This document shows positions 1,189-50,100 of a DNA stretch of 64,000 nt, one piece after another. The stretch lies in contig NC_086381.1 in assembly GCF_036588685.1 (NCBI RefSeq), positions 37,944,001 to 38,008,000 of the forward strand, read 5' to 3'. Under the pieces are notes generated by a model. The model made no database searches. It was not told the origin of the DNA and worked only from the letters and a program-made list of their open reading frames with translations. The stretch comes from Mytilus trossulus (lineage: Eukaryota). Position 1 is the first letter of the stretch. Every line of letters begins with the position of its first letter. The translations under genes were made by a program, and so were the position numbers.

Positions 1189-1369
1189 CTAACATCTCAG
1201 AACCATACAGGAACAGCATTGTGGTAGACGTTTATATTGACGAATTAACTGACCAAGTTTTGGACACCAAATATAATAAACCATGGTCTTGAAATTAGTT
1301 TGCCTGCAAGCCTTTATTCCGGGGAAGACATGTTCTGATACAGCTGTCACTCCAAGACAACTCCTTTGT
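1189..1369 (-). CDS. Paralogue A coding exon 5 (C-terminal half of the cystine knot)
   Basis: Acceptor ttattttacag, stop TAG at 1189-1191; encodes ...WCPKLGQLIRQYKRLPQCCSCMVLRC, homologous to exon 5 of B, C and D. Confidence 0.9.
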
Positions 1370-4300
1370 CTGTAAAATAATCAAAAAGTCACATTAATGT
1401 TCCCCAGTTTATGCAAAGTAAACTATAAAATCCCCAGACCTGGCCAGACTACGTAGTTAATTCATGTTCACAAGTTACAATGTACATAATTAACATATAT
1501 ACTGATGTTTATTCGCTGGTTTTAATTGGATGTATGAACGACTGTGTTTAACGTTCGGTGAGGTGTTGCTATATTGCTCCGTGCTCATTTAATAAAAACA
1601 TCCAACAATTGCAATTATGGTGAAATATTGAAACTAAATATAAGGATTTACGTAACGCAATATGTAAACCGTCATTATGATCAGTTCAAAGAACAAACAG
1701 CCAACAATATTTGAAGGAAACGCTTTACCATTTGGTCTGAGTTTCGTGTCATGAAGACATATACAATTCCCCTGTTTCCGTGTAAACACTCCCCCCCCCC
1801 CTTTCCAAAAAGGAGAAAAAACAACAACAACTAACAACTTGCAAAACCTTTAGAGTCAATTTTTCTGTTGTTAGATGTAACTTATAAGTTTTTGACTGAG
1901 AACTAATTTCTATACTTTAGTGGTTTTCTATGTTTTTAATGGTCAGATGTTCATTTGATATCTAAACACTTGTTGTCTTTCGGACTTTGGTGAGTAGTTT
2001 TTTTATTGACCATCTGCATACCAGACTTTTGTAAGCAAGTAATGTTTATAAACTACCGGACAGTGTATTGTATTGATTGTTACCTGAATTGATTTGTAAT
2101 ATTTCTCTTACTCCATAGGTCGTATGTACACGTATAGTTATTGATTGGTTATTTCCCTTTATTGTTTCCCGCCTCACGTTCATTATCAAATGTGCCTTCC
2201 AAACTATCACATATGTTAGTTTTCTCCCCTGATTAAAAGCGCTACAATTAAACGTAGAGTTAAGTGTAGTGAGAATATGTTACCCGACATACTTACTGAC
2301 AACCAACGAATGGACATCCACCTGATTGTCTAACCCATGGTCGTAAGATCCAACAATGATGTCCGTGGAATTCAGTGGATTTGGGGAAAAAGAATAGATT
2401 TTGAACAGCAGGACAGGTATCAATCCATTGTGTAGACGTGTGTTGGGGAGGAGGTGGTGGTGCACCATATGAACCATGAGAAGACCTGAAATATATAAAA
2501 AACTGATATCAGGTATAATTAAATAACAGCTGTATTAAATAAATTTCATTTAATCCTTGTCGTACATGCGCGGAAAAAAAATATGACTAAGTTTTTGTTA
2601 GTGAAAGAAGTTGGAGAAACCACCGACCTTCGTTAGAAAAAACTGACTATCCTAGCTATATTGAATTGAGATAGCCTAGTTCTTAATGCACCTGCCTATC
2701 ACTTGCATGATTCGAAATCATCACGTCAGTATTGACAGTCTTTTTATCTAGTAGTTTGATGAGTTAGACCATTCGTCCAACGAAGCCGATTGATGCAATT
2801 ATAACTCTTCATTATGAGTATCTAGTTTGCAAAATTTTTAAAATATGTTATGTAATATTATTTATTCTATGTTCAAAAAGCGTCCATTAAAATAGTTTTT
2901 ATCAAAAATATTTTTCTAAACTTGACCAAATATAGCTTTAGAAATCGCGATTGCAAGGAACTTCTCTTTACATAACTACATATGTTTTCAGTGTTTAATC
3001 ATGAAAATGTGCTAGAGTATTACTTGTTTCTCAAATTATGTGGACAAATTTATAACAAATACTGATATTGTACAAACCACGTGCCCATTTTCATTTTATT
3101 TTTCCCAAACTTTTTTTTTAGTAATTTGGCCCGTCGTGCTATACATCCCAACAGCTCATATTTATAAAACGTAGGGCTTCTCCATTTTTTGTTTTTTATT
3201 ATTTATTTTCCGGCGTATTTTGTCAAGCATACTGTAACACAAACACCTATTTGTGAAATTAAAAATAACAAAGTATGTAGAATATAATTTTATGTACATG
3301 TATAAGTATTATGATTACTTACTTGGCTTTGTGTCGATTACAGTGACATGAAGCTGTTCGTCTTGCTTGTGACACGTGTCTGTTGAAATGTCTACTGGAC
3401 TTTCGCAAATATCTTGAAATATCGGTACTAAAATCAGAGAAAAACTGTTATTCTAAATATATATGCATGTATATTGTGTAAATTTGAATAAAGTATTCAT
3501 TTATCATCAATGTCAAACAATTTTAGAAATTGAAGTTTAAAATGTAGATTAATCTTCCACTCCAATCTAAGTCGTACCAACACCGTGACTAAAAAAGATT
3601 TGGCTTGTTTAATATTCGTTTAATTTTTACAAAATATTGCAAAAAATATAAAACTGCAGCAAATTTAAACCATATCATTTACTAGATTTTTTTTTTGAAA
3701 TTGCAGTTCGACAAAGTTTTACACTAATTTTGATAATTGTGAAGCTTGATTCCTCTTGAATTATAGAATATTTGATTAAAACGTTCACAACAGTTGACTT
3801 TTAAAGAGTTAACTTCCCTCAGGTATATTTTCACATTAAGTTGCTCCATTCGATCAAATTTGTTTTTTATGTATTATAATTTTGCCTATCAAACTGCAAC
3901 AGATGAAGGATCATAGATAAAACAGTTTTTTTATGTTCTGACAAATGGGTGGACGTGTTTAACAATACTTCAATTATATAAAGTCTGCTAGAAAACATGA
4001 CACAATATTCAGAATTCAAGCCGAACAGTCTTTATCGCTATTTACAAATATATATACCATGTTGTTATTGGATAAACAGTAAAATGCAAATAGTCAGACC
4101 CAAGACACTTCGGAATCTCGAGACAAACATTAGAGATCTTAGGTCAATTGATCAATCAAAACTTTTTATCCCTACTTTTAGATTATTGTACGTAAACGTA
4201 TTTGTAACATATCTTAATATATATGAGTCAAATCTAATACAAGCACACACAGAAAACAGTTGAATTATATGTCTGGGTTTGTGTTTTCATTTTCCCAGTT

Positions 4301-5570
4301 TGCTGTGTAAGTTGAAACAAAGGCATATCAGTACATACGCAGGATATTTTCCGACTAGCTGGACATCACTCAATTTTGTAACGGTTTCATCTCTTGGTGG
4401 AACACATCGACCTACAGGCTGTGGAGCTTTGACGGGTTGTGGGTGTCGCAGATACTGGTGAGGCGGTAAGGGTTGGTCATGGTGAGGTGGAACTGGTTGG
4501 AGGTGGGGAGGAAGAGGGTGATGAAGAGGTAATTGTTGTAGATGAGGAGGGAGAAGCTTGTGAGGAGGTAATGGTTGAAGATGGGGAGGCAGTTGATGGT
4601 GAGGTGGCACCTGTTGTAGATGGGGAGGAAGAAGATGAGGAGGAAGAGGATGATGAGGCGCTACTGGTTGGAGATGGGGAGGCAGAGAATTGTGAGGTGG
4701 CCCTTGTTGGAGATGGGGAGGGAGAAGATGTTGGAGGTGAGGAGGAAGAAGATGTGGAGGTGGCACACGTGGTACGAAATGGCGAGGTGGGGGATGGTAA
4801 GTGTTTGATTGAACTGAAACAACACACACTACCAGTATCAATATCATATGTGGAACCTGCTAAAAGGAAAAATCAGGAAAAATAGTACACATGAATTATA
4901 TGTTCTTACGATATAATTTAAGATAATTACACAAGTATTGTAATAAAGTTTGTTATCTGAAGAATTGTCTTCCGATAACAAAATAAGGCTTTTTTCACAT
5001 TTCGTCTTAAGCATAAGTATCTTTTTAACTGATTTAAATAAATACTTTAAAATTTAAAGTAAGTTTTGAAAATGATATAATATAATCCTCAACTGCATTT
5101 CATAAAAAAAATTTAAAAAAAATATGAACTGACAAAAAACAAGACGTTTCTGTCCGTTCAATTTTAAATAGTTATCAAAGGTACCAGAATTATAATTTGA
5201 TACGCCAGACACGTTTTTCGTCTACTTTAGACCCACCAGTAACGCTCAGATCGAAATAATTAAATAGCCAAACAAGTATAAAGTTGAACAACATTAAGGA
5301 CCCAAAATCCCCAAAATACGATTAAGGTTATCTATTCCTATGATACAAAAATCCTTTGTTTCCGAAAAAAATTAATAAAAAAGTCTCTTAAAAGTTATGT
5401 TAAAATTTCCTAAATGCAATCTTTTTCTAGTTTATTAGAATTATTTTGATTTTAGCTATTTTCTTACAATTTTATATCATTTTGAATATCACTTATATTT
5501 TATCTTCATCATTTGTTAATTAGAAAGATGGTCGTATTTTAGCTAAGGAGTAATAATATATTCTTACCAT
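1189..5570 (-). CDS. Paralogue A: secreted His/Pro-repeat protein with C-terminal Spaetzle-like cystine-knot domain, 331 aa, join(5568-5570,4339-4856,3323-3427,2297-2485,1189-1369)
   Basis: All introns are GT..AG with phases 0,2,2,2, and the 996-nt spliced CDS is open. Protein: MVPHMILILVVCVVSVQS (signal) - His/Pro repeats - GRCVPPRDETVTKLSDVQLVGKYPA-TDISRYLRKSSRHFNRHVSQARRTASCHCNRHKAK-SSHGSYGAPPPPPQHTSTQWIDTCPAVQNLFFFPKSTEFHGHHCWILRPWVRQSGGCPFVGCQ-QRSCLGVTAVSEHVFPGIKACRQTNFKTMVYYIWCPKLGQLIRQYKRLPQCCSCMVLRC*. AATAAA (minus strand) at 1164-1169. Exon 1 is the least certain part. Confidence 0.88.
2297..2485 (-). CDS. Paralogue A coding exon 4 (N-terminal half of the cystine knot)
   Basis: tttcag acceptor and GTAAGT donor; WIDTCP..FFFPK..CWILRPW..CPFVGC matches exon 4 of B, C and D. 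Confidence 0.9.
3323..3427 (-). CDS. Paralogue A coding exon 3 (basic pro-region)
   Basis: ttttag acceptor and GTAAGT donor, 105 nt, phase 2-2; same size class as exon 3 of the paralogues (105-108 nt). Confidence 0.82.
4339..4856 (-). CDS. Paralogue A coding exon 2 (signal peptide + His/Pro repeat + CxxP..GKYP motif)
   Basis: ttttagcag acceptor and GTATGT donor directly after the GKYP motif, the same position as in B, C and D; overlaps ORF 4287..4847. Confidence 0.9.
4455..4765 (-). repeat. Coding minisatellite, ~39-bp / 13-aa unit LPPHLQ[QP]xPPHHx
   Basis: Units LPPHLQQGPPHNS, LPPHLQPVAPHHP, LPPHLQQVPPHHQ, LPPHLQPLPPHKL, LPPHLQQLPLHHP, LPPHLQPVPPHHDQP, plus partial units. Confidence 0.9.
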
Positions 5571-7561: not shown

Positions 7562-8052
7562 AATTTTATTTATAGTGCAACCTGATATAACAACTATTTT
7601 ACATACATTAATACAACGTCAATCAGCCAGCCTTCAAAGGCTTACGAAGCACTGTCAATTAATATCTATAATTTGCGCTAATATAGAAGATATGAAATTA
7701 ATACTTCAAGATCATTTTAAAACAAGATTATTTAAATATCACAATGAGAAAGTAACTGAGTTCTGATTTTTGAAATATTGAATATATAGTTTGACACTAG
7801 TTTACAGTCTGTAGTTAGCAATTTAATGAGTATTTCGTCATCAGAAAGAACGGAAAAGTCTATGTTGTTACGTTGCTGAAAGTCAGTGAAGGCATTGTTT
7901 CTTTCACACAAATATAAAGGACATTTAACTAAAAAATGTTTTTCGTCCTCAACGGATACATTGTCATTGCAGACTTTACAAAAACGTCTATTTGACGGGA
8001 TACCACGATAACGCCCAAGTTCTAATTCCAACGGAAAAGTCCCACAAAGCAT
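7562..8052 (-). mobile_element. 5'-truncated non-LTR retrotransposon 3' end (ORF2 C-terminal CCHC region + 3' UTR)
   Basis: ORF 7732..8052: LELELGRYRGIP..RFCKVCN..VEDEKHFLVKCPLY is the typical post-RT zinc knuckle of CR1/L2-group LINEs; it ends near AATAAA and a (TA)n tract at ~7548-7572. Confidence 0.75.
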
Positions 8053-10132
8053 ATAAGATCAGTATTTTTTTTATTTTACCTTTTAGTTATGATTTAAATA
8101 ATAGATAACAAATTCAATGTAAAAACCAACAAAGACGATATTAAAAGAACTGACTATAGTTTTAAATTAATAACCTATAAAATATATGTATGATTTGTTA
8201 CAGATTGTTTCTAGTTTTTTTGTGCTAGATACACACATTCAACGTAAATAAAAGGATACTATATTCCGTTTTCAATGATTTTCTACAGATACAGCCAAAA
8301 TTATACAAATAATTGACTACTCAGTCTAGTATATGATACATAAGAAATTTGTGGTAACGGCATGTTTTTAGTATGTGCTTTATTTCAACAACACACGAGG
8401 TAAATAGGCCAAGGGGGACATTGTGTACAGTCCCATATTTCACATATGTGCCATGTCGAGTCATCTGGTTTGTTGTTGTTTGCTTTTTTTACATGAAAAA
8501 GATGGGGTATGATTGCTTAAGACATCTGAATACCTACCCAAAAGTCAAAGTTTTAAGATTGTAAATGAAAAAAACCTTTTAGTTACAATAAATTTAGATT
8601 TGTCTGTTTGTTTTCTCACAAATTAATGTCAATATAATGCAATCTATGTAACTGTCATACAAGTGAGAGGTTTTGCTAGCTATGAAACCAGGTTCAATCC
8701 ATCGTTTTCTACACGAGGCAATGCCTGTACCAAGTAGCAATGTAAGAGTTTATGTTTCTTTGATTTCGACATTGGATAATGGCTATTTCGTTTTGAATTT
8801 TTTTGGAGTTTAGTGTTGTTGTTATTTGGCTTTTAATAAATGAGTTAATTTCTAGTTTGTAGCTAGGAACAACATGACTCTATGCACAAACTGTTCTCGT
8901 GTAATATTGAGAAATGTGACATTTGTCCGGTTTAACAAAAGGCTTTTCTCTAATCGTTTAGAAAATTGCAAAACATTCTGATCACATTGAATTTAAAAAC
9001 TCCATGTGTCATACAGTATCGATTTCTATATTATACATTGTAACATAAATTGGATTTTTTCCTTTGATGTTTTTATTAAATAATTTGCTTAAAAAGTGTG
9101 GTGAGAGAAAACCATGGTATATTATATACACATTTATGTTGTACCATACTTTGCTAATTAAATATGCAACTCAACTAGAATCCAAAGGAAAAAAGAAGGA
9201 GCTTCAGCCATGGTATAACATATTCATTTTCATGTTATTCCATGACTGAAGCTCCACCTTTTTTTTTTAAATGTATCCGCCTCTAAAATATTTAGGAAAC
9301 TGGAAAACGTACTTAAAGGTCAAGATCTTCATTTGTTTTCATTTTATAAGAAAAAGCAATAAATTATGTGTACCACATTTTAAGAAACCTTTTTCAAACT
9401 ACATAGGTTTGTTACGAACTCCATTAATTTTGAAAACAATTAGTAAATATCTTTCTTTCAGTTTTGAAAAATATAAAATGTAAAGCTATTATTTTTCCAT
9501 TGCGAAAATTCAATTAAATGTTGATTTAAAAAGGGGGTACCTATAGAAAAAGGAATAAATACCGGCTACAAATATCTATGAAAAAAACATGATTTTTTGG
9601 GCGATCAATTAGGGGACGTACACTATCTACGCCCCTGGATCCGCCACTGTTTAAAAACATTGTTTTATCATTAAAATTGTGTTTTAATAAATAAACTAAT
9701 AATCGAATTAATAAAAAAACGGAAGAAAAGCTTTTCAATTAGATGAAAATTCTGTAAACTATCATTAATTTATATGATATACATTGAAAACAAAGAAAAA
9801 AAAAACAATTCTTACCGCCATTAGAATAATTATTTAATCCTTGTCACTGGATCCGACATTTTTGTTTACCTCAGGCTGATGTCATTATGAAATTACCTGT
9901 GGATACAATCATACACGGGGCGGAAAAATAAAAAAAAATCATTTTCTTTCTTTCTGCAAATTCAGGGGTTCTATTACATGAAATACACAGACGATCATAC
10001 ACGAAGCGCAAAAGTGACTTGCGCGAGCTTCCATTTCATTGGATAAAACTGTAATGTGATCAATTTCCAATATTAGTTGAATGTCTTGAACAATGTTGAA
10101 GCTGTCAATCATTTTATTTATATTACAAATTT

Positions 10133-11015: not shown

Positions 11016-11202
11016 TTAGAACCCTAAACAATACAGAGTCATACATAAACAAGTTTGAGGTAATCTAACATATCTTCGAACAATCCCAGACCTCAGACAC
11101 CATATGAAATAGTCAAATGACCTCAATGTAGAGCTTCTGCAAGCCGTGACTCCTGGACCATTCCGGCTGACTATTCCTTTTACACTAAAACAAGCTTTAT
11201 TT
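11016..11202 (-). CDS. Paralogue B coding exon 5
   Basis: ttttacag acceptor; 3' part of ORF 11016..11441; WCLRSGIVRRYVRLPQTCLC. Confidence 0.9.
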
Positions 11203-14200
11203 CTGTAAAATATAATTTTAATGGTATGATTTGCCAATTGCATTTTTGAGCTTACAAACGAATAAAAGAACACCAATATTTTTTGTGGTTGAGTAATTAG
11301 TAAATTAAAATGATAATTTATTTGTAAATCAACAAATACAGTATAAGGCCTATATTTTAAAATATAAAAAAAAGAAAGATGTGGTATGACTGCCAATGTG
11401 ACGATGCTCCTCAAGAGACCAAATGGCACAGAAATTAACAACTATAGGTCACCACATGGCCTTCAACAATGTGCAAAGCCCATACCACATTGACAGCTCT
11501 AAAAGACCCAGAAATTAACTGTAAAAAGGTTCAAACGACCTAATATATGAACCAAAAACGAACAAAAACAAATTTGTAGATACATCTTAGTGTGATCATT
11601 TATTTGTAATAGCAATTTATCTCCTTGTTTTTGCATCTTATGTATTACTCACGTGCATGTAACGTAGGGACAATGCATTTGATACCATGGAAATACCATC
11701 CAACATGTTTTCCCATCATGTGTGACAGTTCTCGGAAAGTAAAACCTCTTGGAAGAGGATGAGCATGTAGGAGACCAGGTAGGGCGAGGTTCTATTTCAG
11801 TAGCTCTAGGAAAGAAATCAAATGGTCTTCCAGCTAGACTTTCGTTAAATCTTGGTCTGAAAAGATATATTTGTACTCGAAATTAATACTTGAATGGAAT
11901 ATTTGTTACCTTGTCATAACTTTCAATACTACAGTTGTTTCAGTAAAAACTTTTTATCAGGCCAACTTTATATACCTATAGCGGATAATACTACAAAAAA
12001 ATTTATTTTACTATACATATGTTATTTTACATAAGCAGATCCAAAACATGCACACACATAATTTTACTGCTTGACAGTGATTCCATTCACAACCGTTATC
12101 ATTCTATTTGCCTTCTTACAACACCAGGAATGCATATGTATTCAAACTGTATTGCAGTTTCGGAATACTTAGAGATTCAAATGTTATAAATTTGTTTCCC
12201 AAAGTAATAGGACTATTTGTTCTAATGCTCTATCGCAGACAGGAAGTTTTGAATTTATTTGTGATTTTAATTTATTGATCAAGGTCGCCTTATAAGTATT
12301 GACCTTTGTGTTTTTTAATAAGAATTTTAACCATTCAATGATTGATCAAACTAATTACTAGTAGTAAAAATTCCTTTTTTGATGCAATGAAGAAACTTTT
12401 CTGATCATCAATGTAGGCGAGAGCAGAAATTAAATTTTGTAAAAAGAAGTGATTGCATTTATCAGTTCATAATTTAAATAATGAACTATAATACTGCTTA
12501 ATATTTATTATTCTTTTTAAAATATCTCACTGAAAAGGGTTGTATCTGTAACACAGACTGTTTGTATAACTTCTTGCGGTTTGGAGCCAATCTCTTGTGT
12601 ATCTGTCTAACTTACTGATTGCATTGTCTACAGACGTTCTGGAAATGAAAAAAAATAACATTATGTCGAGTGCTTAACTTGAAGGTTAAGCAAATCCTGC
12701 TCCACATGTAGCACCCGTCATGTTGCTCATGTTAATACAAACCCGGTCATAATGGTCATCTAGCACTTTTTGTTGAAATTGCCTGCCGGAAGATCATGAT
12801 ATCTTTAAAGTTTCTAGAATTCCACGTAATCAGGAATCGTCATCAGATGAATCAATTACAATTTTTTTCTCGTGTAATCCACAATCATGCATTTTCGTAT
12901 TAAAGGATATGGTATTTAACATAAAAATAGGGTTTCACAACTGGATATTGACAAGTGCAGTAACACGAGATTTGCCATCTAAATACACACAAATATAAAA
13001 ATTACCAGGTTTTATGACATACTTAAATTGATCGTCTTACAAATACTATCTGTATTTTGATTCCAATGGTTAGTTTTGGTTTTGTTACGTGCTTTTACAA
13101 TGCACTATCTACTCACATTGGATACTTGTCAGCAACTTTCACTTCAACCAACTCTTTTAACGGTGTTTCCTTTGGTCTAGTGCAAAGTGGTGGGTTAGCT
13201 ATTGGAGTAGCTTGTGTTTCAGGAGTATCTAGTTGCGAATGGACAGCAGAAGACATCGCTAAAAATAATGTCATTTGCAGCCTCTAAACATGGAATGACA
13301 AATAAGTAAGAATTCAGTTTAATATTAAAATTTTCTGTTTTTTGCTTTGGATCTGCGCTAAATATCGATTATATTTAATAGTCATATCATCTGTTAGTTT
13401 CATTAAGATTTTCTTAAATTTCAATATGATTACTTATATCTTATCGTATAATTTCCGAAACATATTCTCCTGTTATGGTTGTGAAGTTGAATTATTATTA
13501 GTGTTATCGTCCTGCATATGCATGTTATACTGACACAACCACCAACAAATAAACAAATGTATTAATTATTCGTTATAAGATTGAATACATGAATTGACAT
13601 TTTCAAATTTTATATTTCATACCATTTTTCTTCGCTTCAATGGCGTATGTAATTATTTGCCTGTTTCTTCGAAAGTCATATTAGTGGAGCGGCGGAGAGG
13701 ACAATTTCAGAAATTTAAATAGCATAAATACCTCATGGAATTTTAATAGCTCATTGGAAAGCCGAAATCGTATACTTTTTGAAAATATGTGTCGTAAATA
13801 TGAAAGCTTGTACCATTATGCCGAAAACCAAGATCAAAGGTCATCACGAAAAAGTCATATTCTCATCTAGTAAAACAATACCATTGATATTTTTCAAAAT
13901 TAGTAATCTATTTAATAAATTAAATGAGTATTATTATGTATCAATGTGTTTGTTCATACCTTTTTTTTCATTTGGACATGACGTCAGAACAACGTTATAT
14001 TTAACTTTTTTGAAGGTAGTCCGTGGTATACAAATTTTAAAGCCTAATAAAAAAACAGTAGCATAATAACCGGGATATTTCACCTCGACAAAGAACATTT
14101 CTTGAATAGTTTAGGATAAAAGTTTTTAAAAAAGTATTCGAAATGCATAGTTTATAAATCAAACAATAAAACTGTGCAGCCGTGTTAAATTTCCATTCAG

Positions 14201-17200
14201 TTTTCAAAGTTTAGACATGTCACTTAGTTTTCCTTAAATGAACTTTCTCAATACAAGATACCTTTTCATATAACATAGTTATTGGAGTGGTAGACTACCA
14301 AGCAAGCATTTTGTAGAAATTATTCAAAAATTAAGACATTGAACGTTTTGGTTCTATTATCTATGATGAGCTTAATTTCATAAAAAATGAAACGTGGAAA
14401 AACATATAGCAAATCACAATAAAGCTATCAAATATTGTAACAAGAACTATTTTTATGATATTTCATCTGTGTCATCAGCTATGTCAACGGATACTGACTG
14501 GACATTATTACAACTTCCTACATTTTGGCAAAAACATAAATCAGTGCAAGGAAGACCCTGCTCCTTGTAAACGCATACGTCCTGGCATGTTTCCCCCCTT
14601 ACACGAACAAATAAGATCTTGTAGAAAGTCTGATGCCAATTGTCCCTCAAAGAACACTGGCTCTAACTTGTCATTTTGTGCAGTTTTCCAACCAAAAGCA
14701 CATGGGGAGCCATTATTTGGGTTGGCCAAATTTTCCCAAACTTTGCTTTGCCACATTGCACGCATTACGTGTTGCTTAAATACGGATTCACATGGCGGAG
14801 GCTTTATAAGACTGTTATCTTAATTGATAGCCAACTGATGTCTCAGCAAATTTAAATCGTTGTGATATTTCTTAAATTTGTACTTTGAGTCGTATAAAGC
14901 AGCAAAAAAACTCCCTAGCAGCAACTACCGCACTTTCAACATCATGGTGTGTTAAGGTGTAACACCACTAATTCAGGCCCGGCCAGAAAGCACATACCAG
15001 AAAGTAGTACATATCTAACACAAAACAGTTCCTACGCATGAGTGTAACTTTCAAAATATGAAGAATATTTAGGTATTTTTGGTATCAAATGAAAGCTGAA
15101 GGACTGGTGATCATTGCAGAACACTTTTGGATTTTTAATGTTGAATATTAAAAAAATTGCACCAAATTTCAAAAAGAGGGTACATTTAGTCTGTTTGTCA
15201 GATCTGAAGTACCTGTTTTGGTACATCCGAAGTTCTGGGAACCAGTTCTTTCTTATATGCCATGTAAGGAATGTTGATTTTTTCAGTAGAAGACACCATA
15301 AAGTGTTGCGTTGACATGCAATGATTGCCACTTTATTTGAACTTAAAATGAAAGAGGTGTGCCTGGTTGAAATGGAGGAATTTAACATAGAAAGTAATGG
15401 GACCATGAATTAGTGGTGTAAATTTATTCAGATTGGTCCACTTCATCTTTATGGAAAGTATGAAAAAAAGTTTAATTGTGGAACTGTGATTTTTTTCACG
15501 ATAATAGCCCAAAAATAGGTAAAAATCGATGAAAAGTGAGAAAATCATCAAAATTGGGCATTTTCAAAGGGCCGTAGCAAAAAACGAAGCACACCACCAT
15601 ATGATTTTTTCTTCACCAATTGTTTTGTTACAGTCTTATAAACCTAAAAATCAGGTTAAGAAAAAAAGTTTAATTCTAGAAATTTTTGGCTCCTCAGAGG
15701 TGTACATCCTTAAGGCTACACGATTACTAAAACGGCTTGGTTTTGTTCTGAGGTGGTTGAATACCGACTTTTTATCATTGCAAAAAAAAAGAGTGGAATC
15801 ACACCCACTCAGAGCATGAACGACCGGCAGAATACCGGTGACAAATGGGTCAATAAACGAAACAATGTCGTGACCTGGTATTAAACGTTTATTATCCTTC
15901 AAGCTACCTATTGAACCAGTTTGAACCCATAATTCTTTTGTATTTTTAAGCATTGGGTAGACATGTAAAGCCAGAACAAGAACATCAGTATCATCTGATT
16001 TTATATTAATTCCATCCTTGACGTCTTTCCCAACAAATATCCCATCCGTGTGAACAGCATGCAAAATAATTCCGGTATCTGCTTCTTCATGGTTACAACG
16101 CAATGTCGGACAACTATAACACTACTGTGTGTCATTTTTTATGCAATTTCCAGATCAGTAAAACAACCAGCCATGTTCAAAGCGTTTGGAAACTTTACAT
16201 TTACATTTGATGTGACATATTCACCAAGAAAATGCAAAAAGGATTTTTTGTTTTGAGAGACAAACAAAAATCGTTTCCAGTCTGGCACAAGTCGACTTTC
16301 AATGACCTGGAAAAGACCTGAATATCCTGTTTTGACGACCTTCATTTCTTTCACAAGATTTGACTGATAGTAATACGTCGTACCCACTTTCACTTTGCTG
16401 GATAGAGCCCTGTCAACATGATCATTGGCAAGGTCACCGACAGTTGAACTTTTTTCAAATGAAATGTTTGAACAATTGCCATTTCATCTCTGATAATCAC
16501 TGTTTTTGACAGACAAACAGAAGAAGCAGTTTCCTCAAGCTTGTGGAGCAAGTCAGCTTTTACCGATTTCCTCATTGATCCGTTATCATGAAAAATTGCA
16601 GTTGGGACTGGGCCAATCGTATGCTCCATGATCTTTTGCAGAGAGACGTCATTAAGTGAGCTACTTAATGTCAAGGCTCTTCGAAACACAAGCTCTGGTT
16701 CAATATAAATGTGCATAGTGTCTCCTGTACGAGAACGAAACGGGGTTTTCTTGGACATGTCGGCAAATGTTTTTAGAATAGACCGCGACAAGAGACTATA
16801 GAAACTAGACTTTCAATCGATTTACAATGCGTTGTTTACAAAGGATCGTAGCATTTTATCACCTGTTTCGATCGCAGTGAAAAGGGATTTCTGAATTTCT
16901 GGTGACGCATGCATGCCCGTGGAAATATTTATCAAGCATGCGGGGTGTAAACTGATATCAAATGGGTTAGTCATGCGTTCGGTGAGATTATTTATTAACG
17001 TCTTTACATGCTCCCCGTAGCGTTTCATGGCTGCTTCTTGAGTTTGCCCATGTATATGATCCACCTCCGCATTGTGCTGGCATAATAATCAGCAACGCAA
17101 TGACGAGATAATGACCATCTGATTAACGCAGAATTTTTTCCAGCAATGTTTGCTGTACCCCCACTACCTTTTGAATCTTTGATCACAGTTTTTCCACAGC

Positions 17201-28549: not shown

Positions 28550-28754
28550 TTAGGACTTATCAGCTCCTTGGAACCAAGGGCAGAACAGGTATTTACATGA
28601 ACAACATTGCGGCAAACGTACAAATTTTCGAACTAAACCAGCCCTTCGACACCAGACATAATAGTAATAATATTTATAGTTAGAATGTCCGCAGTACGTG
28701 AATCCTTGATTAAATATGGAGACTGTACCCTTCACTCCTGAACAACGGCTTTGC
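28550..28754 (-). CDS. Paralogue C coding exon 5
   Basis: ttttag acceptor; 3' part of ORF 28550..28870. Confidence 0.9.
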
Positions 28755-31700
28755 CTAAAATATATAAAGTACATGTTAATGTCTCTCTCTCTTTTTATAG
28801 CTTTACATATAGTGATATTTAAATATATGTATTTATTTCTCGCATTTAAATGAATGTGAATGTCAAGCATTCAACCTCGTAAGATACATTATAATGAGTG
28901 AAGAATTTCTATGTACAAATAATATCTTCTATCAGTTAAAAAATTATAAAACAAATCATTTCGATTTATTTTATACAACTTACCTGCAATAAGCCCGTTT
29001 ACAACGTAAATTGTACCAAGGTGATAACACCCAACATATTTCACGATTGTGCCAAACTGCTCTCGGAAAGTAGTAGTACGAAGTGATTGACGGGCATGTA
29101 TCACGCCAGAATGGTGAAGATGTCCTCGAAGAAAAAGATTGTGCAGGCGGTACTACATTAGCAGGTCTAGAACTAAACAAAAAACAAGTGCAAATTGTAA
29201 ATAGTCAGAGTTATATTGAGCTCAAAGTATTTTTTGTTCTGTCTAATAAAATTTATATCATGAAATATTATGCGACAGTGCTTACTGCTGACAGATTGTA
29301 ATGAAATTTAAAGCATGCAAATAAATAAATAATAGATTTCATAAAAAATTATGTTCTCTTCCTCAAGTTATTCCCACTCAAATCGACATATATTCAGCGC
29401 TATGTTTCTCAAGTATTTAAAATGTTCAATCACAGACTTGGTATTGTACTTGACTACAGTTTTAGTTCAGTTACCGAAAGTGATTACTCAAGTAAAAAGA
29501 CTGCAATGCAGTAATGTTATTTTCGTTAATATGGTTAGGAACTCCGGATTTTCTGATGTCAGTAAATACTTGCATTGCCAAGTACAGTGATAAATTAAGG
29601 CAACAATAGTAATCTAAACCTCTGTTCAATAGTCACAAATCGAATAAGCGAAAACAGATCCGGGTCACAAAACAAAACCGAGGAAAAATGATATGGTTAT
29701 ATTTATAAATTGACTGTTTACATGTTTTTTTTATTTTTTGGAAAAAACCTAAGGCTGATCTACCTCAGACATAGATTACCTTAGATGTATTTGGTAAAAC
29801 TTTTATGAACTTTTGTCCTCAATGCTCTTCAACTTTGTACTTTATTTGGCCTTTTTAACACTTTTGGAGTCGAGCGTCACTGATGACTCCTTTGTAGACG
29901 AAACGCGTGTCTGGCGTATATACTAGTATATTAAATTTAGTCCTATTATCTATGATCAGTTAATTTATACACTATAAGGAGAAAACAGTGTAACAATAGA
30001 ATTAAGAAACGCTGAACCTCTACAAAATCAAACACAAAATTACATAGAAATTTACCTTTGGATAAATTGTAACTTCTTCCATATTCATAGCTTAGTACAG
30101 AACATTTTCAAACAATGGTGGGATAAACGGGCTGTCCTATAGTTGTTAATGTCTGTGTCATTTTGGTCTTTTGTGGATAGTTGTCTAATTGGCAATCATA
30201 CCACATCTTCTTTTTTATATTTAAAAAAACACTGACCAATAGATTCAATGAACTATAATGCAACGTATGAGTAGTGGGAAAACGTTCAACTAAAACATGC
30301 ATATATAGTATCTGGAACTATCATTATAAATATTATATTAATTCAATCAATTTAACATGAATTTTGTGTAACAAATGTAAAAAAATGGTAATATTGAAAA
30401 ATATTGTTTATTGGTTTTACGATTTAACTTTCTTATTCACTTTAAAGTTAGTAACTTTCGTTGCAAATGTTTTTTCTATCGTTATGCATGGAACTTGTTC
30501 TTTTAAATTCATGTAAAAAAGTGAAATCTTTAGTGCAGTGACCATGTCAAATTTATGTACATTTATGTAAGCTCTTTTAAATCGGTCAATTCGATTTGCA
30601 GGTATGGCCTATATATATGTGTGTGTATACATGTATATATGCTCTCATTTTTTGGCGTATCCTGTATAGCAACACAGCAATTTGAAAAAGACTAATAAAC
30701 CACACCAAAAAAACCACAACCATTGAACAACAGTTTTCTGGAGTATTAGACATATTCGACAAAACAAGCGGGTTTAACAGGCGCCAACCTTCACCTTAAC
30801 CTCGAACAAATACTATAAAATTTGTCTTTAAATAGCTTCACTCGAACAAAAAGAAATGAAAACAAAGGAAGTAAACATACACTGAACTACTAAAATTGAT
30901 CTATGCACTTAGGGAAGATAAAGTATCCCGAAATTAAGAGTTCCAAATACAAATATCTGATTTGACACATGTGAAAAAATTATATCTTTTGAAAAAATAC
31001 TTTTAAAATAATTAAAAATAAAACAAGAATTACCAAACAAATTGCTTTCAACTTTATATACTTTTGATAACAAGATCATATATTCATATGCTTTTCCTCG
31101 CATTCATGGTTAAACGGATACATGTTTTAATAGGAGTTCGGCTGTCCGTTTACTTTATGTCCGTTCGTCTGTACATTCTTCTTGTACGATATGTTTTACT
31201 TTTGAATACACAAGTATAACCTCTTCAACAACTTATCATAATGAAATTAAACCACATGTTTCTTACCATGAAATGCCAATTTGCACTTTTTATTTTGTTT
31301 TTTGGTCAATCTCAGTTTTGGGGTTTCTATTTCCTTAACATGAACTTTACAATTTAAGATTCGTTCTCATATAATGCCATTTATGTGTTGTTTAGGGTTA
31401 ACTAACACACCTTTCTTCGATTTAAATAATTTGTTTAATCATAAAAGTAAGTAAACTGTTACTACATCATTTATTCAAATACCTGGGAAATGTCAGTGAT
31501 CCCAACCGATATGTAACGCACATCTTAAAAGTCTTTTGTGACCCCTTTAAAATTTCGAATTTAGGTGAATGTACATAGTATTCCATCATGATTTGTCACC
31601 CATTTATATTTGATTCGTCTAAAAGCCAGGTACGAAACAATGCAGTATACGTAAATAAACAATTAGTTCTCTCATTGGCACTCCACATATTCCTATATCT

Positions 31701-34700
31701 ATAAACAAACGAAATTTGAAAAACGTATGTTAAAAAATATGATTGTTCAGTATATATTCAAAAAATATTTTCAATGCATTTTTATCAAACTTACCTAGCA
31801 AAATGGAAATGCTCACAAAGGCCCCTTCCAAGAACTCTTGCGTTCTCTAGCTCACTTTTTATCGAACCACGCATTGTATTAATGGCTTTTCTAATAGCTG
31901 CACTGGAATTGAATAAGCAAAATAATCAGAGAGTAAGCTAGTATCAATTTAAGTGTTTTACCTTACTTTTTTGTATAGTGTATGGTGGGTTTTTTTGTAC
32001 GTTTTTTTTATTTTATCATGAACATTTAAACGAGGTCTGCTGAAATTTAAACGCTTATGTTTCCTGTCATGTTTGCGAAAAAAGAAATACGTTATCCTTT
32101 CGTGCCTTCAGAATATATATATATATAATTCTTATATGATTTGCATATCTATGAATACTTGAATTTGATTGGTCAATTAGATTTTTTATCTGAGTTTACA
32201 CTTCGATAAACGATATTTCCAAAACTACTTTTGTAATCTATTCATTCGCGATACACAAGCTTGCAGTCTCATGGGATTTTCAGCAAATTGAGATTTAAAA
32301 ACAATTGCATAACAGTTGTGACTATTCTAGTGCATATATAACAAAAAAAAAAGAAATGAATTTAATGCACTTAAGCTTCAAAAATGTATAAAACAAAATT
32401 TTATAAAATTCCGCGAAATTTCATGAAGGATTTGGCGAATTTACGTCATGGCAACACGACGTCATACGAATGGAAATTTTGGAAGGGAAAGATTATTTCG
32501 TTACGTGCATATATATATACAACTCGTCTAAACATCAACCCAACAATTTGTTTATGCCGTCACAATAAGATATTCAGAGGGAAGCAGGCAAATACGACGA
32601 CATAATCGGAATAACGAATGATTAACTGAGATCAAACGAACCACACGTTGATTATTTTTTGTACACACAATGGGTGCAGAAAGGTATAAATTGACGAAGA
32701 ATTAGAGAAAAAAATTATATATGTCTTTCGTTGAATACCGCCTTATGTTACGATGTATATTGGACAATTATACTTTTATTCAAGACATTATCAGATGTTC
32801 GTTTATTGAGGTTTGAAGTTCATATGTAAGATATTGAATCCAAGATTTTAAATCTAAAGTTGAAGTGATACTTCTGAAATTCTATTACCAACACAGTAAA
32901 TCAAGTTGATTAATATGGCACATTCTAGTCAATCACTGATGTCCACGTGTACAGTTCATTCTTTACTGTAACCTTTCTGACATGAGACTGATATTTGAAT
33001 ATATCATAGTATAACGACGAATCTTATGTGATGAGAAGGGATAGTGTCAGGAACGACATGTTATATTACAATTGTTAAGTGAGCCAATGAACTGCACTTT
33101 GCTTTTTATGTGTGTTTTATTAGACCTTTTCAACAACTCTCGAAATCGACTATTGACACCTACAGCTTTTAGGAGAAATAAATGGGTCATATTAAAGATA
33201 ACAATCAGTCATGTATAACATGTATATATCTGAAACATACATTGCAGTACATGTGTACTACATATTAAACTAAAACGATATTATTTAAAAAAAAAAAAAA
33301 AAAAAAAAAAAGGTTTTGCAAACTGTCAACTGTAGATGTAAACAATTCTATTATAATGCCAGGCTTTGGAAATCCATACATATTATGTGATACTAGTACT
33401 TGTAATCCCGTAACCTTACCTCTTACTTCGGACTGTCATATTTATAACATTTGGCAATCGCAATAGTTCCAAATATTGTTATAATTTTAAAAGATATTAA
33501 TGAATGATAAAATTTGTATAAAAATACCACAGTTGACGTTGCGACATTTTAAACATACCTCGCAAATAACGCTGCAGATAAGAGGATTCATAACGTTAAA
33601 TATATTCTTTACAAGGCAGATGTACTTACGCAGGATATTTGCCAGAAGTTTTTGCAGCAACCAATTCTTCTATTTCAGGTTCTTTCGGTCGGAAGCAAAT
33701 CCTCCTTTTTTCCAGAGATGCTTCATCAACTGGTTTCCCTGGGGGTTCTTTGACTTCTGGTTGTGCGTAGACAACTATAATCACTAATTGCAATGTGAAT
33801 TGCAGCCTCTAAAAAGTAAGACAAAAACCGACTTTCGTATCATGTGCATTGCATTTTACATTCAATCAAATACTGGCAAATATAGCTAAAAAAAGTAAAA
33901 GGCTACATACTGAACACCAAGTCAAAGGAGTAGAGTCAGTTATCCAAATAAACGGCCCTATAAACTGATAAAGGTGCATTTATATACACTTTCTATTCTA
34001 GTGTCGTGACCTTGATTTTTTCTCAGTATTTAACATGTTTAAAGGATGATGCCTATATTGTAGTTTAAGTAGTGTAGTCAGACTTACAACTCCTATACAC
34101 AATTTGTAAATACCACTTTATAAGTTTTGTTCATCCGATGCAATTTTGTGGATTAACCTTTATTTGTAACGCTCAAATCTAAACATTTGAGAGATGGGGA
34201 TGCATTAATTTGTACAATGTATGTTTTGAGGACTATATGAAAAAAAAAGAAGAAAACGACAGTCAGTTTCATCAATGTTCAATTTTGATTGTAATGCCTG
34301 GGTAAGCTAAAAATCCAATCTTTCATTTGCGCCACAAGGTTATATTTCATTTGCGCCAAAAATTAACTGCTTCATTTGCGCCATTTTACAGGTAATACAG
34401 GTTATATATATTTTAACAGGAAAGAAATAATCATCGCTCTATCATGAATATTAAAGTTTGTTTAGACAGTATTACTGTAAATACAATTAGGTTTAGATCT
34501 ATATAGTGTTCACATGTAAGATGTCCATGTATCAATATGGACATTGTCAATTCAGATGTTCTGAAAAATAGTGAAAAGTCATTTAGGTTTCAGAGGTAGA
34601 ATAACTTGTACGTGTAAAGGCAGAATAACAACTGATACGGAACACAAAACAATTATCAAAACTTTGAACAATCACAACCATTGGGTAAACCAGCAGAAAG

Positions 34701-43985: not shown

Positions 43986-44154
43986 CTAAGGGCATCTCAG
44001 TCGCATACATGAACAACATTGCGGCAATCGGATACGTCTTCGCACTAAACCGGACCTTGAGCACCAAATATAATAATAATATGACCTCCATGTACTCTGT
44101 CTGCAGGCAGTGATTCCTGAATATGCTTCCTTTACTCCTTGACAACCCCTAGAT
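43986..44154 (-). CDS. Paralogue D coding exon 5
   Basis: ttttatag acceptor; lies within ORF 43986..44180. Confidence 0.9.
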
Positions 44155-47100
44155 CTATAAAAATATATGTATCGTGTCAAATGGAAGCTTTTTCGAGAAC
44201 AGTAAAACCACCCATATTTCTGATACCGGATTAAATGATATATATATATATGATTTCTTGCAAATCAAATTATAAATGCCGAATTATGTATGATGCAACA
44301 AAGAAATGAACACTAACACATACTGTATTCGGAAATGATTCCATTTTAATTCATAAATTTTAATTCAATACATGACATCATTAGCATTCTGAACATTAGT
44401 CACGCGTTTCAAATCTTTTTTTGAAAAGCAACTTCTCATATTTAACCTTATGCCATGCGTTTAAATAGAACATACTGAATTGAACTGTGCGTGGTTTTTC
44501 TGTAGCAGTAAAAAAGTAATTTTTAACAACAATCACACAACTTTCATGAATATTACTCACGTGCAGGCAGTGTAGGGACAACGTAGACGATACCATGGAG
44601 AAAGCATCCAGCATGTTTGTCCTTTGTATACGATGGTTTTTGGAAAGTAAAAGTACTTTGTGTATTTTGGGCACGTATCAAGCCAGAAAGGAACAGGTCT
44701 AGGTGAAACAGATGATTTGTCAACAGGTTTTACATCAGCAGTTCTAAAAAGATACAATTGTATTAAATGAACTAAATATGTGCCTATTGTTATGCGTTAA
44801 CTTTTCTACATTGGTTTGATGTATATGGGGAGGATTGAGATCGCTTAAACATGTTTGACCCGGCCGCATTTCAGCGCCTGTCCCAATTCAGGAGCCTCTA
44901 GCCTTTTTAAGTCTTGTATTATTTTTACTTTTAGTTTCTTATGTACAATTTGAAATTTAGTTTGGCTAAGGTAATCTTGCCTGGGATAAGAAAATCCTTA
45001 TTTTTTCGAACATTTCAAAGTTTTGCTAGCAGAAAATTTATAACAATGACCACAGTATTGATATTCATGTCAACACCGAAGTGAGACTACTGGGCTGGTG
45101 ATACTCTCGGGGACCAAACGTCCACCAGCATTGGGATCGACCCAGTTGTGTAAATAATTATCAAAGGTACCAGGATTATAATTTAGTTCGCCAGACGCGC
45201 GTTTCGTCTACAAATGACTCGTCAGTGACGCTCAGATCAACATAGTTGTATCGTCAAATGTGTACGAAGTTGAAAAGTATTGAGGACCTAAAATTTCAAA
45301 AATGTTGTGCCAAATACGGCTAAGGTAATCTATGCCTGGGATAAGAAAATCCTTAGTTTTTCGAAAAACTCAAAGTTTTGTTAGCAGGAAATTAAAAAAA
45401 ATGACCACATTATTGATATTCAAGTCAACACCGAAGTGGGACTACTGGGCTGGTGATACCCTCGGGGACCAAACGTCCACCAGAATTGACATCCACCCAG
45501 TGGAAATAGTTATCAAAGGTACCAGGATTATAATTAAGTACGCCAGACGTGCGTTACGTCTACAAAAGACTCGTCAGTGACGCTCAGATCAAAATAGTTG
45601 TATCGTCAAACATGTACGAAGTTGAAGAGCATTGAGGACCTACAATTACAAAAATGTTGTGCCAAATACGGATAATTTGTCTGTTCTATGGTCGGGTTGT
45701 TGTTTCTTTGACACATTCCGCATTTCCATTCTCAATGTTAAAATTGACTGCTTAAAGTATCATTTTCCTTAGTTATAGATTATATATTTAAAATAACAGA
45801 TGATACTATAACATACATTATGCGGCAGTAAACGTTTTATGAAATTTAGATTTACAGCGCTTTCGGAAGACAAAACAAAGAATTAAACGAACAATCAGTG
45901 CTCACTATAACAAAGAAAAAAGAAAAACACAAACAAACTGAGCACACGACAATGACTAGAAAGTATATACATGTACATTGGAATACCAGTTTCACTTTGT
46001 AAATTCTGAACAAAACTGGTTACAAAATACGTATTGATATTTTCATATTCTGTGTACTTAAACATTTAAAGTAGAAGATTTTCATAAAATAGGTAATCTT
46101 AGAGGCATGCTTTTTTATTAGTTGTTAATGGCTTTGAACTAGCTGTCTGATAACTGCGAGTACTCTCAGATCTATTGATTTTGTGTCGGGATGTATAAGT
46201 ACCCGGCCACGTCCACTTGTATTTTTTGTCTATCTGATGAGTTAAGCCTTTTTCTACTGATTTTTATAGTTCGTTCTTATGTTGTACTGTTATACCACTG
46301 TCCCAGGTTATGGGAGGGTTGGGATCCCGCTAACATGTTTAACCCCGCCACATTATTTATGTATGTGCCTGTCCCAAGTCAGGAGCCTGTAATTCAGTGG
46401 TTGTCGTTTGTTTATGTGTTACATATTTGTTTTTCGTTAATTTTTTTACATAAATAAGGCCGTTAGTTTTCTCGTTTGAATTGTGTTACATTGTCTTATC
46501 GGGGCCTTTTATAGTTGACTATATGCGGTATGGGCTTTGCTCATTGTTGAAGGCCGTACGGTGACCTATAATTGTTAATGTTTGTTTTATTTTGGTCTTT
46601 TGTGAATAGTTGTCTCATTGGCAATCATACCACATCTTCTGTTTTATAAGTTCATAATCAGATGAAGTTTTGTATGTACATACGTATATGCAAAACCTAA
46701 TATTCCATCATTGAATGAAAATGAAATGTTCACGCACCGGTGTAAATTTGTATTGAACTTCTTTATTTTAGTTGATCGTTTCACTGTCATATTCAAATTC
46801 TGGATCGAAATTATTTTCAAAGGAAATGATTGAAAATTTAAAAGATTCTTTATTGGCAAATCGGAGATTTTGATTCACAAAAAGACATACGTTTCTTTGT
46901 AGTTCATAATTGCTTTATACTAACTGGTATTGCTTTTTTGTGAACGTATGTGCTATAAAATAAACTCATCATAGATACCAGGAATGTCATTTTATATTTA
47001 CGCCAGACGCGCGTTTCGTCTACAGAAGACTCATTAGTGACGCTCAGATCAAAATAGTTATAAAGCCAAACAAGTATAAAGTTGAAGAGCATTAAGAACC

Positions 47101-50100
47101 AAAAAAATCTAAAAGTGTTGCCAAAGAAAGCTAAGGTGATCTATTCCTGGGATAAGAAAATCCTTTGTTTTTTTTCAAAAAACTCAAAGTCTTGAAACAG
47201 AAAATTTATAAAAACCACCATATAAATGATATTCATGTCAACATCGAAGTGCTGACTTCTGGGCTGGTGTATAAAATTTGTAAACACTTACTTGTGTCTG
47301 TATGTTTCACAAAAACCGTGTCCATGACCTCTAGCAAAATGAAGATCGTGTCTGTTCCTTCTTCGGGACTTAAATATAGCTCTTCTTATAGATGCACTGA
47401 AAATACATGCATGTACAGTTATTAAACAACCTGACAGCTGCCACATGTGGAGCAGGATCTGCTTACCCTTCCGGAGCACCTAAGATCACCCCCAGTTTTT
47501 GTTGGGGTTCGTGTTGCTTAGTCTTTTGTTTTCTATGTTGTGCCTTCAGTACTATTATTTGTCTATTTGTCTTTTTATTGGCGTTTTCAATTTATTTTCT
47601 ATCTATGAGCTTGACTCTCCCTTTGGTATCCGTCGTCTCTCTTTTGTTAGGGAATTATAGTTTAGTCAAAATAAATGAAAAAGGATCGGGTTTTTTTCGA
47701 ATGCGAGGTGATGCTAGTTTTTCTTCTTGAGATACAGTTTAACACAAATTTTATCTGTTTTAGCAGTAGAAAATTGATTTTAAGTCGTTTATTCGGGTTG
47801 GTGATTTGTTTAAACTGTCTATGATATATTTGTGTTTTCATTAATTGGCGAATGCCTTATGTTGTTTACAAGGTATTCGGGAACAAGTCCTTCTTATAAT
47901 ATTGGGTCATATGTAATATATTCTAACATTTCTTACATTTCATTATTTCTTAAGTGATTGTTTAAGGATATATATAAAATCATATTCAAAACAGTGTGGT
48001 CCTGGCCATTGATTGACGACCTAAATTATCCCAATTGACTGGGACAGATTAGGTGAACGTTTGTCGGTAACAATCACTGCTCACTATGTACTTGTTAAAG
48101 ACACTGAATCTGTGGGGTCACCAAAGGTTCTCAACACCTAAATTAAGCAATTCGAAAAACGAATCCGGAATAATACGATGTGTTGATTTGTATTAATAAT
48201 ATAAATCAAAACATAAAGGTTATTCCTGAATAATTTTTCGAATTATTTTATTATTAAAGGTGTTAACCTTTGGTGACCCCACAGTTTAAATTCTATAATA
48301 AGTAAGAAGTGAGCAATGGTCGTTACAGACAAACGTTCACCTAATCTGTCCCAGTCAATAGGATAATTTAGGTCGTCAATCAATGGCCAGGACCACACTG
48401 TTTTGAATATGATTCTATATATATGTGTTACATATGGCTATGATCCATTTGTTAGAATAACAACACAAATCCGCCCTGCTTTTCTCGGTATACATGGTAT
48501 AACATAATCAAATGAAACTCATAGTTGTTCATACAATGACTTATCATTTTTTATCTTTCCAGAATCACCTCAATTTACTCATGCTTAGTAGTAAGGTTGC
48601 ATGGTGCTGTTAAATATTCAGTTTCTGCTAAATGTGATTTTGAAATTGCTGGTTGTCTACTTTATATTTACTAAATCCATGTAGTTAACCTTTTTCCACA
48701 CATATTATGATTCGTTCAAATACAGAATTTAAATATTGGGACCACACCCTAGAACACTACAACTCCATTTCTATAAAATAACGTCTTTATTTAATTTTTG
48801 CCATCTTGAAAAAACGCTTAGATGCTAGCAACCTGATAGAATTCACAACTTTTGTTTTGGTGAAGTGTTTACTTGTTTTAACAATGCTAAATGTACTTAC
48901 GTTGGATATCTGCCGGAACGTCTTGCTTCAACCAACTCCTCTATGTGTATTTGTTTTGGTCCAGTGCAAACCCTGTTAGGAGTAGGTTTTGGAGCAATAT
49001 TAGGAACAGGAGTAGGAGTAGTAGTTGTAGGAGGATTCGTAGTTGAATCTGTGTAAAGAGCAGAGGTAGAAGGAGGAGTAGGAGGAGGAGAAGGAGGAGG
49101 CATGCCACCATGAATAACTGATGGCACGTAGATGACAAAAATCACTAAACGTAATGTGATGTGCAGCCTCTGAAATAAAAATAAAATTGATCTGTAAATA
49201 ATCTCCATTTGTTTTTTGTTTAAGGTAACGTTATTTTGGCGAATGTGATATACCTAAGTATCTCAGACATTTAAAACAAATTAAAATCTATTAGTATAAA
49301 ATTTAATAGATAAAATGTCTAATAACATTTAAAAATAGATTTCGATGCGATAGTTATAACTTAAAATTAACGTTCTTGAAACGCTTTGGGTACGCATGTG
49401 GTAAAATATGAATATATTGCCAGGGCAATTCTGTTTGTACTCCCACGTCATATGCGTTCTTATGAATGAGGTACCCGACGTCATGGAAAGATGACGTAAG
49501 AAATATAAGCATTTTACGGAAAAACTGAAAATCATCACAACAAGAAAAGTTGTGCTAGGCGTATTTCAGCTGACCCCTAGACAAAAAAGTGTACTGGTTC
49601 AGCGATTATAGACGTAATACTAAACTCCGAAACATAACAATGAACTAAAATCAAAATCATAGAAGACTTAGAAGGACAGAGGCTCCTGGATTGGGACAGG
49701 CGCACAAATGCGGCGGGGTTTAACATGTTTCGTGAGATCACAACCCTCCCCTATACCTCTAGCCAATGAAGAATGAAAAACACACAGTAATACGAACAGT
49801 AAAACGCACTTCAGTAGGAAATACAAGTCCTATGTCAGAATAGGAAACAAACTAAGAAACTAATTAACATGCATGACAATGATAAAAAAATAACAAAGGA
49901 CTACTATACATAAGGCTAGCAGTTACTGGCATACGCCAGCTCCAGACCTCAATTAAACTAATTGAAAGGTTTTATATGTCCTCATTATGCACACTCTCTC
50001 CCCGTTGCATTTATTGCTAATTTGTTCCGGAACATTCATGAAATATTTGTCACTGGCAACAACAAAAAATCGAAAATTTAAAATAGGTTGTTTACATACA

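Follow-up and report, generated by a model that had tools for sequence, protein, structure and literature searches.

We analysed a window of 64,000 nucleotides of the Mytilus trossulus genome (NC_086381.1), in which four related genes are clustered on the minus strand, hereafter paralogues A, B, C and D, with B, C and D located upstream of A (Table 1). The four genes share their exon layout and all have intact frames. For paralogue A, exons 2-5 join into a frame identical to residues 2-332 of the M. trossulus RefSeq protein XP_063399242.1, an uncharacterised model which is itself a prediction, and which starts with a methionine followed directly by exon 2. A candidate for this first codon is an ATG-only exon, the only ATG/GTAAG pattern among three candidates between A and B, and similar candidate exons are located at 21426, 35275 and 58035 for B, C and D. 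The resulting A precursor has a mass of 37.8 kDa, a pI of 9.9 and 10.5% His.

Table 1. Features of the four paralogues, with positions in the window
Feature	Positions	Strand	Content and basis
Candidate A start codon	5568..5570	minus	End of ATG-only coding exon (ATG / GTAAG donor); pattern scan
Paralogue A exon 2	4339..4859	minus	Signal peptide, His/Pro repeat and C-x2-P...YP pro-motif; 100% identical to XP_063399242.1 residues 2-175; splice sites
Hydrophobic signal peptide, residues 2-19	4806..4859	minus	Read directly from the sequence; cleavage site by eye
Repeat core His/Pro/Leu/Gln, residues 38-134 (97 aa)	4461..4751	minus	Six 13-aa units plus 5-, 8- and 15-aa variants
Pro-motif C153-x2-P...L...Y173-P174	4341..4406	minus	Invariant in 15/15 aligned proteins
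Paralogue A exon 3	3323..3427	minus	Basic pro-segment; helix predicted at low confidence; dibasic sites RK183, RR197
Paralogue A exon 4	2297..2485	minus	First half of Spätzle-like knot domain; C234, C254, C267, C272
Paralogue A exon 5	1189..1369	minus	Second half of knot domain; C277, C294, C308, C324, C325, C327, C332; stop
Paralogue B	11016..13283	minus	Exons 13283-13117, 12638-12531, 11856-11653, 11202-11016; short linker; Thr at predicted dimer cysteine
Paralogue C	28550..33808	minus	Exons 33808-33630, 31902-31795, 29172-28984, 28754-28550; short linker
Paralogue D	43986..49169	minus	Exons 49169-48901, 47396-47292, 44743-44561, 44154-43986; Pro/Thr linker; orthologue of M. coruscus byssal protein-1

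The four genes differ most in exon 2, which measures 167 nt in B, 179 nt in C, 269 nt in D and 521 nt in A with identical intron phases, while exon 3 stays at 105-108 nt in all four. Exon 2 is therefore the variable part, in agreement with the first-pass annotation of this DNA, which had called it hypervariable. The cysteine conserved in the C-x2-P...YP motif is residue 153 of A, and its counterparts in B, C and D are residues 35, 39 and 69; the linker sizes given earlier for B, C and D (about 15-20 residues in B and C, about 45 in D) are consistent with these positions, C having about 22 aa by estimated signal cleavage. In public databases, some models run adjacent paralogues together (A and B in M. 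galloprovincialis; D and B-like exons in M. coruscus); these are probably annotation errors, and they suggest that the order of the cluster is conserved.

Exon 2 of A has a polypyrimidine-AG acceptor upstream and a GT donor in phase 2. The first-pass annotation had bounded it at 4339..4856; the exon is real and follows a tandem (NAGNAG) acceptor, whose first AG gives 4859 as the exon start and whose second gives 4856. Both acceptors are annotated in public models of M. galloprovincialis, with a difference of one Gln in the signal peptide. On the minus strand only the His/Pro frame of the exon is free of stops, the remaining frames containing 7 and 3, and all orthologues are in the His/Pro frame. 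Two alternative readings were rejected as shadows of the repeat, namely a Glu/Asp-rich ORF on the opposite strand (4433-4885), given the frame used by all orthologues, and a Ser-rich frame on the minus strand, which in addition has stops inside the exon.

The repeat itself is regular. Its core has nine LPPH[LQ] starts with a spacing of 8, 13, 13, 5, 13, 13, 13 and 15 residues, TRF reports a period of 39 bp (4.3 copies, score 157), and the identity at lag 13 is 0.54, a value reached by none of 10,000 composition-preserving shuffles at any lag from 2 to 19 (maximum 0.45). The 13-aa His/Pro tandem repeat claimed at the outset is thus confirmed as part of an open coding exon. Residues 22-146 consist of 34% Pro, 19% His, 19% Leu and 11% Gln; the core includes 19 His with four HH pairs, whereas acidic residues (1 Asp/Glu in 97 residues) and Tyr are nearly absent. 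With a single Lys and no Arg, the core would yield poor tryptic peptides. When the six full units are compared in 15 pairs, which are not independent, third codon positions account for 86 of 146 base differences, and codons differing by a single base show 55 silent against 22 replacement changes, so the change between units is mostly silent, which argues that the protein sequence of the repeat is constrained. With 34% Pro the block cannot be alpha-helical. A His face on a polyproline-II helix was sought in the repeat and none was found (moment 0.05), and AlphaFold2 models the repeat with low confidence along its whole length. An ESM Atlas query with the repeat returned no usable match, and a protein search with exon 2 alone returned none among 8000 scored candidates of 92-296 aa, a range which excludes the orthologues of 303-337 aa.

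Homology searches place the cluster in a family of Mytilus proteins. A profile of the four last exons in the window finds 8 matches among 383 candidates, all in Mytilus, and matches byssal protein-1 at E 1.7e-19; a full-length family profile finds 7 among 8000 scored, again all in Mytilus. When 1.84 billion representatives are searched exhaustively, 5 matches emerge, three of them judged real (two known Mytilus members and one unnamed, apparently related fragment of 60 aa); the two others, both repetitive proteins, were judged spurious. The named match is byssal protein-1 of M. coruscus (AKI87984.1 / A0A0G2YQ77). Paralogue D shares 61-78% identity per exon with it and groups with it in the tree at 97/97 support, and the assignment of D as its orthologue is new here. 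Paralogue A shares 35% identity with byssal protein-1 overall and 49% in the knot domain; homology over the pro-motif and the Cys-rich domain places A in the byssal protein-1 family.

Orthologues of A are found in M. galloprovincialis, M. edulis and M. coruscus. The repeat is present in all of them with a variable copy number, so that the comparison across species proposed earlier shows it kept in four Mytilus species, with the conserved cysteine at residue 158 in M. galloprovincialis, 140 in M. edulis and 124 or 116 in M. coruscus, against 153 in M. trossulus. Between 17 and 25 His precede this cysteine in all five A records examined from the four species. The first-pass annotation had restricted the repeat to paralogue A only, which is right among the four paralogues in the window and the further paralogues found, and not in the sense of a single gene, the repeat being common to the A orthologues of other Mytilus species. 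In the tree the A orthologues group together (100/100), and a long branch of 1.26 changes per column separates them from the rest; the path from A to D amounts to about 1.9-2.0 changes per column, and a long-branch uncertainty is flagged for A and B. Along this branch the tissue in which A is expressed may have changed. Further paralogues rich in Tyr/Trp (E and F) lie outside the window; their linkers are very short, their knot domains contain 12-16 Tyr, and they are candidates for DOPA-bearing byssal knots.

The A protein shows the order typical of Spätzle, with a signal peptide (by eye), a pro-region and a C-terminal knot domain of 103 aa. All 12 knot domains compared share nine invariant cysteines, and 11 of the 12 keep a tenth (C324), the disulfide pairing being deduced from cysteine spacing. 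The Pfam Spaetzle family (PF16077) matches five of the 12 knot domains (best E 8.4e-6) and three of 15 full proteins (best E 3.7e-5), in both cases without a match for A, and the last exon of D scores 15.8 bits against a cut-off of 27. For the knot domain of A, the top three ESM Atlas matches are Spaetzle clusters (0.93, 209/256 features), followed by NGF, IL-17 and Noggin, and the UniRef name of one fused M. galloprovincialis model is 'Spaetzle domain-containing'. AlphaFold2 gives a weak model for the knot domain (pLDDT 52) and an unusable one for full-length A (pLDDT 39). With the weak knot model, the top seven VIA matches are all knot proteins, including PDGF, VEGF, an LGR ligand and Gremlin (best Z 4.3, rmsd 4.0 over 77 residues), Spätzle being absent from the matches listed, while Foldseek finds nothing under E 0.001 (best E 0.84). 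PDB sequence searches yield nothing significant (best E 0.8; no match in a second search). Overall, the C-terminal domain looks Spätzle-like from the Pfam matches of relatives and from ESM Atlas, and there is now some evidence for the putative cystine-knot precursor proposed earlier.

A dimer of this domain is predicted as well. The ESMFold2 homodimer of A residues 228-332 has a score of 0.45 against 0.01 for the best control; contacts agree in at least 93% between runs, pLDDT is at least 79, and residue 324 touches residue 324 of the partner. In calibration, 21 of 30 solved dimers pass the dimer mark and none of 23 monomers does (17 of 29 and 0 of 30 for eukaryotes, 7 of 16 for animals); of seven eukaryotic dimers lacking an older solved relative, only one passes, and the pass of A may reflect memory of solved knot dimers. 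Spätzle is described, in the accessible text of PMC8637286, as having six knot cysteines and a seventh for the disulfide-linked dimer. The equivalent of C324 is replaced by Thr in B and by Trp in D of M. californianus while the neighbours C325 and C327 are kept, which fits a residue outside the knot that would act between chains; B and M. californianus D may therefore be non-covalent dimers or monomers. The knot domain of A has 3-5 Tyr against 9-16 in the eight other proteins counted, consistent with a shift from Tyr/DOPA to His chemistry. A scan of A for cleavage sites shows two dibasic ones (183, 197) and one minimal RxxR (180), and no canonical R-X-[KR]-R site.

Tissue data come from relatives in two other genera. 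The byssal protein-1 homologue of Perna viridis reaches 7101 TPM in foot against 0-0.33 in six other tissues, with 0 in mantle (PMC7971044 Table S4), and is the 9th-ranked foot gene according to the accessible part of that paper (PMC7971044). As far as the available portions of PMC5911496 report, the Limnoperna fortunei homologue (52% over 135 aa, no domain listed) is one of 16 proteins identified when the proteomes of foot and byssus are combined. It is represented by 2 peptides, has a 350-fold enrichment in foot, and rises or peaks during byssus regrowth. Both genes are called byssal protein-1 on the basis of BLAST in the accessible text of these papers and may represent any paralogue of the family. 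A being a long-diverged branch, its foot expression would be extrapolated from relatives. As for A itself, it has no match in mass, pI and His content, which are properties and not sequences, among mfp-2 to mfp-15 in Supplementary Table 1 of PMC13022425, and is thus not among the named abundant plaque proteins. Identity with mfp-17 was rejected, as the Perna table assigns mfp-17 to another gene (PMC7971044, in the part available). The motifs searched for are not found in the supplements of PMC7018726, PMC7971044, PMC13022425 and PMC11667028, and A is not mentioned in the accessible text of PMC7018715, PMC9999432, PMC13198611, PMC13608469, PMC12586715 and PMC7773633, though the supplement of PMC13198611 may still list it. 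A literature search on mussel byssus with Spätzle, cystine knot or the repeat motif gives no knot assignment for the byssal protein-1 family; the original byssus papers (DeMartini 2017, Qin 2016) could hold a prior listing. A search of sequencing runs for A lists 17 runs with only 0.05-0.07 of the words, which is no evidence on splicing or expression.

The reading that we favour, with belief and doubt about evenly balanced, is that A is a secreted component of the byssus, a predicted knot dimer whose His/Pro arms would serve as a setting switch triggered by pH and metal. This reading draws on the homology to byssal protein-1, the foot specificity of the Perna and Limnoperna homologues, the constraint on the repeat and its conservation, and the low Tyr content of the knot. 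According to PMC13022425, storage in plaque vesicles is at pH 3-4, a peptide of the His-rich mefp-12, which is unrelated to A, undergoes phase separation and curing that depend on Zn and pH, and several vesicle proteins rich in His are uncharacterised. A simple charge calculation for A residues 20-152 gives about +30 at pH 3.5 and about +5 at pH 8.2. Under the proposed mechanism, A would be made in a foot gland and kept in acidic vesicles, where the linker at about +30 would be soluble. Release to seawater would deprotonate the His (about +5 at pH 8.2), repulsion would be lost and the extended Pro/Leu/Gln chains would associate; the HH pairs and the regularly spaced His could then bind Zn or Cu and cross-link the chains. 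The disulfide-locked knot dimer would provide a two-armed, protease-resistant junction, with the arms either staying attached or being cut at the dibasic sites.

Some points count against this byssus switch. Pro-regions are cleaved off in Spätzle and neurotrophins, and the repeat of A sits in a pro-region with dibasic sites and may be cleaved as well. The long branch of A, the missing match to mfp-2 to mfp-15 and the missing His face also count against it, as do the missing Pfam match of A, the scarcity of acidic residues and Tyr in the repeat, the assignment of the Perna and Limnoperna genes by BLAST, and the chance that the dimer pass reflects memory of solved knots. The first-pass annotation had suggested that A may be a growth-factor fold co-opted as a structural or metal-binding extracellular protein. 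The presence of byssal protein-1 in the family, with foot-specific homologues in two other genera, gives evidence for a link to the byssus; yet the D/byssal protein-1 branch is without a His repeat, so that recruitment to the byssus would seem to characterise the family as a whole and not to be something that A alone owes to its repeat. A wider and more tentative proposal, which we consider possible and still rather improbable as a whole, is that a growth-factor fold of the Spätzle/neurotrophin kind was taken into the byssus as the byssal protein-1 family, there forming dimeric junctions that bear load and are locked by disulfides, with exon 2 as a swappable cassette of chemistry; A would be the DOPA-independent, pH/Zn-cured version with His-studded polyproline arms, without coiled coil, collagen or beta-crystal.

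The same architecture could belong to a signalling ligand of the Spätzle/neurotrophin kind, working in foot or immune tissue through a Toll-like receptor or as a growth factor, with the repeat as a spacer or sorting tag of a cleaved pro-region. The order of signal, pro-region and knot, the predicted dimer cysteine and the dibasic sites speak for such a ligand, and so does a knot that is strongly conserved between species, with 95% to M. galloprovincialis over its conserved part. We hold it to be unlikely, as the characterised branch is expressed in foot only, at levels of structural proteins, and is found in foot/byssus proteomics in the available parts of the Perna and Limnoperna papers, as mollusc TLRs bind microbial patterns directly according to the accessible text of PMC7773633, and as A has no canonical cleavage site. 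If A does belong to foot and byssus, its His block might still act in defence or metal handling, as an antimicrobial or metal-sequestering peptide and not in curing. Defence proteins and protease inhibitors are highly expressed in the mussel foot (PMC7971044, accessible part) and the block is cationic at low pH; since the regular 13-aa period would better suit assembly than a diffusible peptide, this role seems quite unlikely.

Two other explanations concern the repeat as material or as mere spacer. The repeats of amelogenin and gamma-zein self-assemble, and by analogy the Pro/His/Leu/Gln block could make A a structural or mineral-templating protein of another secretion such as shell, periostracum or mucus. 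The composition of A and its long branch from the byssal D clade would agree with this; we find it decidedly improbable, because the block is without the acidic residues usual in shell proteins and the sole tissue data of the family indicate foot, Perna mantle showing 0 TPM (PMC7971044). Alternatively, the repeat may be a tolerated expansion of a linker for which any Pro-rich spacer would serve, His being incidental. Linker length is indeed free to vary, with the conserved cysteine at residue 28-158 across paralogues and 116-158 among A orthologues, D has Pro/Thr instead, and the AlphaFold2 repeat model is of low confidence. The predominance of silent changes between units and the 17-25 His kept in 5 of 5 records nevertheless make a tolerated linker very improbable.

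Compared with known systems, A resembles M. coruscus byssal protein-1, whose orthologue D lies in the same cluster, in the signal peptide, the Pro-rich linker, the C-x2-P...YP motif, the basic pro-segment and the Cys-rich C-terminal domain. It differs in its linker of 133 aa of His/Pro/Leu/Gln against about 45 aa of Pro/Thr, and in a knot with one third of the Tyr, A being known here from sequence alone. With Spätzle (PF16077) and neurotrophin precursors A shares the signal-pro-knot order and six cysteines of knot type, with one more on the axis of the predicted dimer; unlike them, it has four extra cysteines in the domain, no Pfam match and a repeat in the pro-region, and its relatives are expressed like structural proteins. 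Horseshoe-crab coagulogen, an NGF-type knot which serves as a material-forming clotting protein, is a precedent for co-option, although it is reported not to dimerise for function in the accessible text of PMC2586362. The PDB sequence searches reveal no similarity of A to coagulogen. To our knowledge, coagulogen has no His/Pro repeat. The His-rich proteins mfp-4, -9, -11 and -12 are, like A, His-rich, basic and secreted (secretion being predicted for A), but their mass, pI and His content are unlike those of A, again compared as properties and not as sequences, and mefp-12 carries its His in a coiled coil.

His-rich repeats are expected in mussel secretions, which lessens the surprise of finding one here. 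The analysis gives byssal protein-1, among the most abundant Perna foot transcripts, a testable fold and mechanism, and suggests that coagulogen is not the sole NGF-type knot to serve as a material, this family being a second example. In addition, current work on mussel adhesion is looking for a His-rich component that does not use DOPA; A would be a concrete candidate, with a 13-mer short enough to be synthesised.

The window also contains features between and within these genes that concern its repetitive content. A GC-richer block on the minus strand (14400-20024), located between exon 2 of B and its candidate ATG exon, includes several broken ORFs which have no convincing match in Pfam; one of them has a HEEAD motif, which we take to be that of Academ-type DNA transposases. 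A fragment on the minus strand at 7735-8058 resembles the end of a non-LTR retroelement ORF, with a weak zf-RVT match (E 0.059). Finally, there are intergenic arrays of a 22-bp minisatellite and a 352-bp tandem duplication in an intron of D (40104-40443, 44964-45675).
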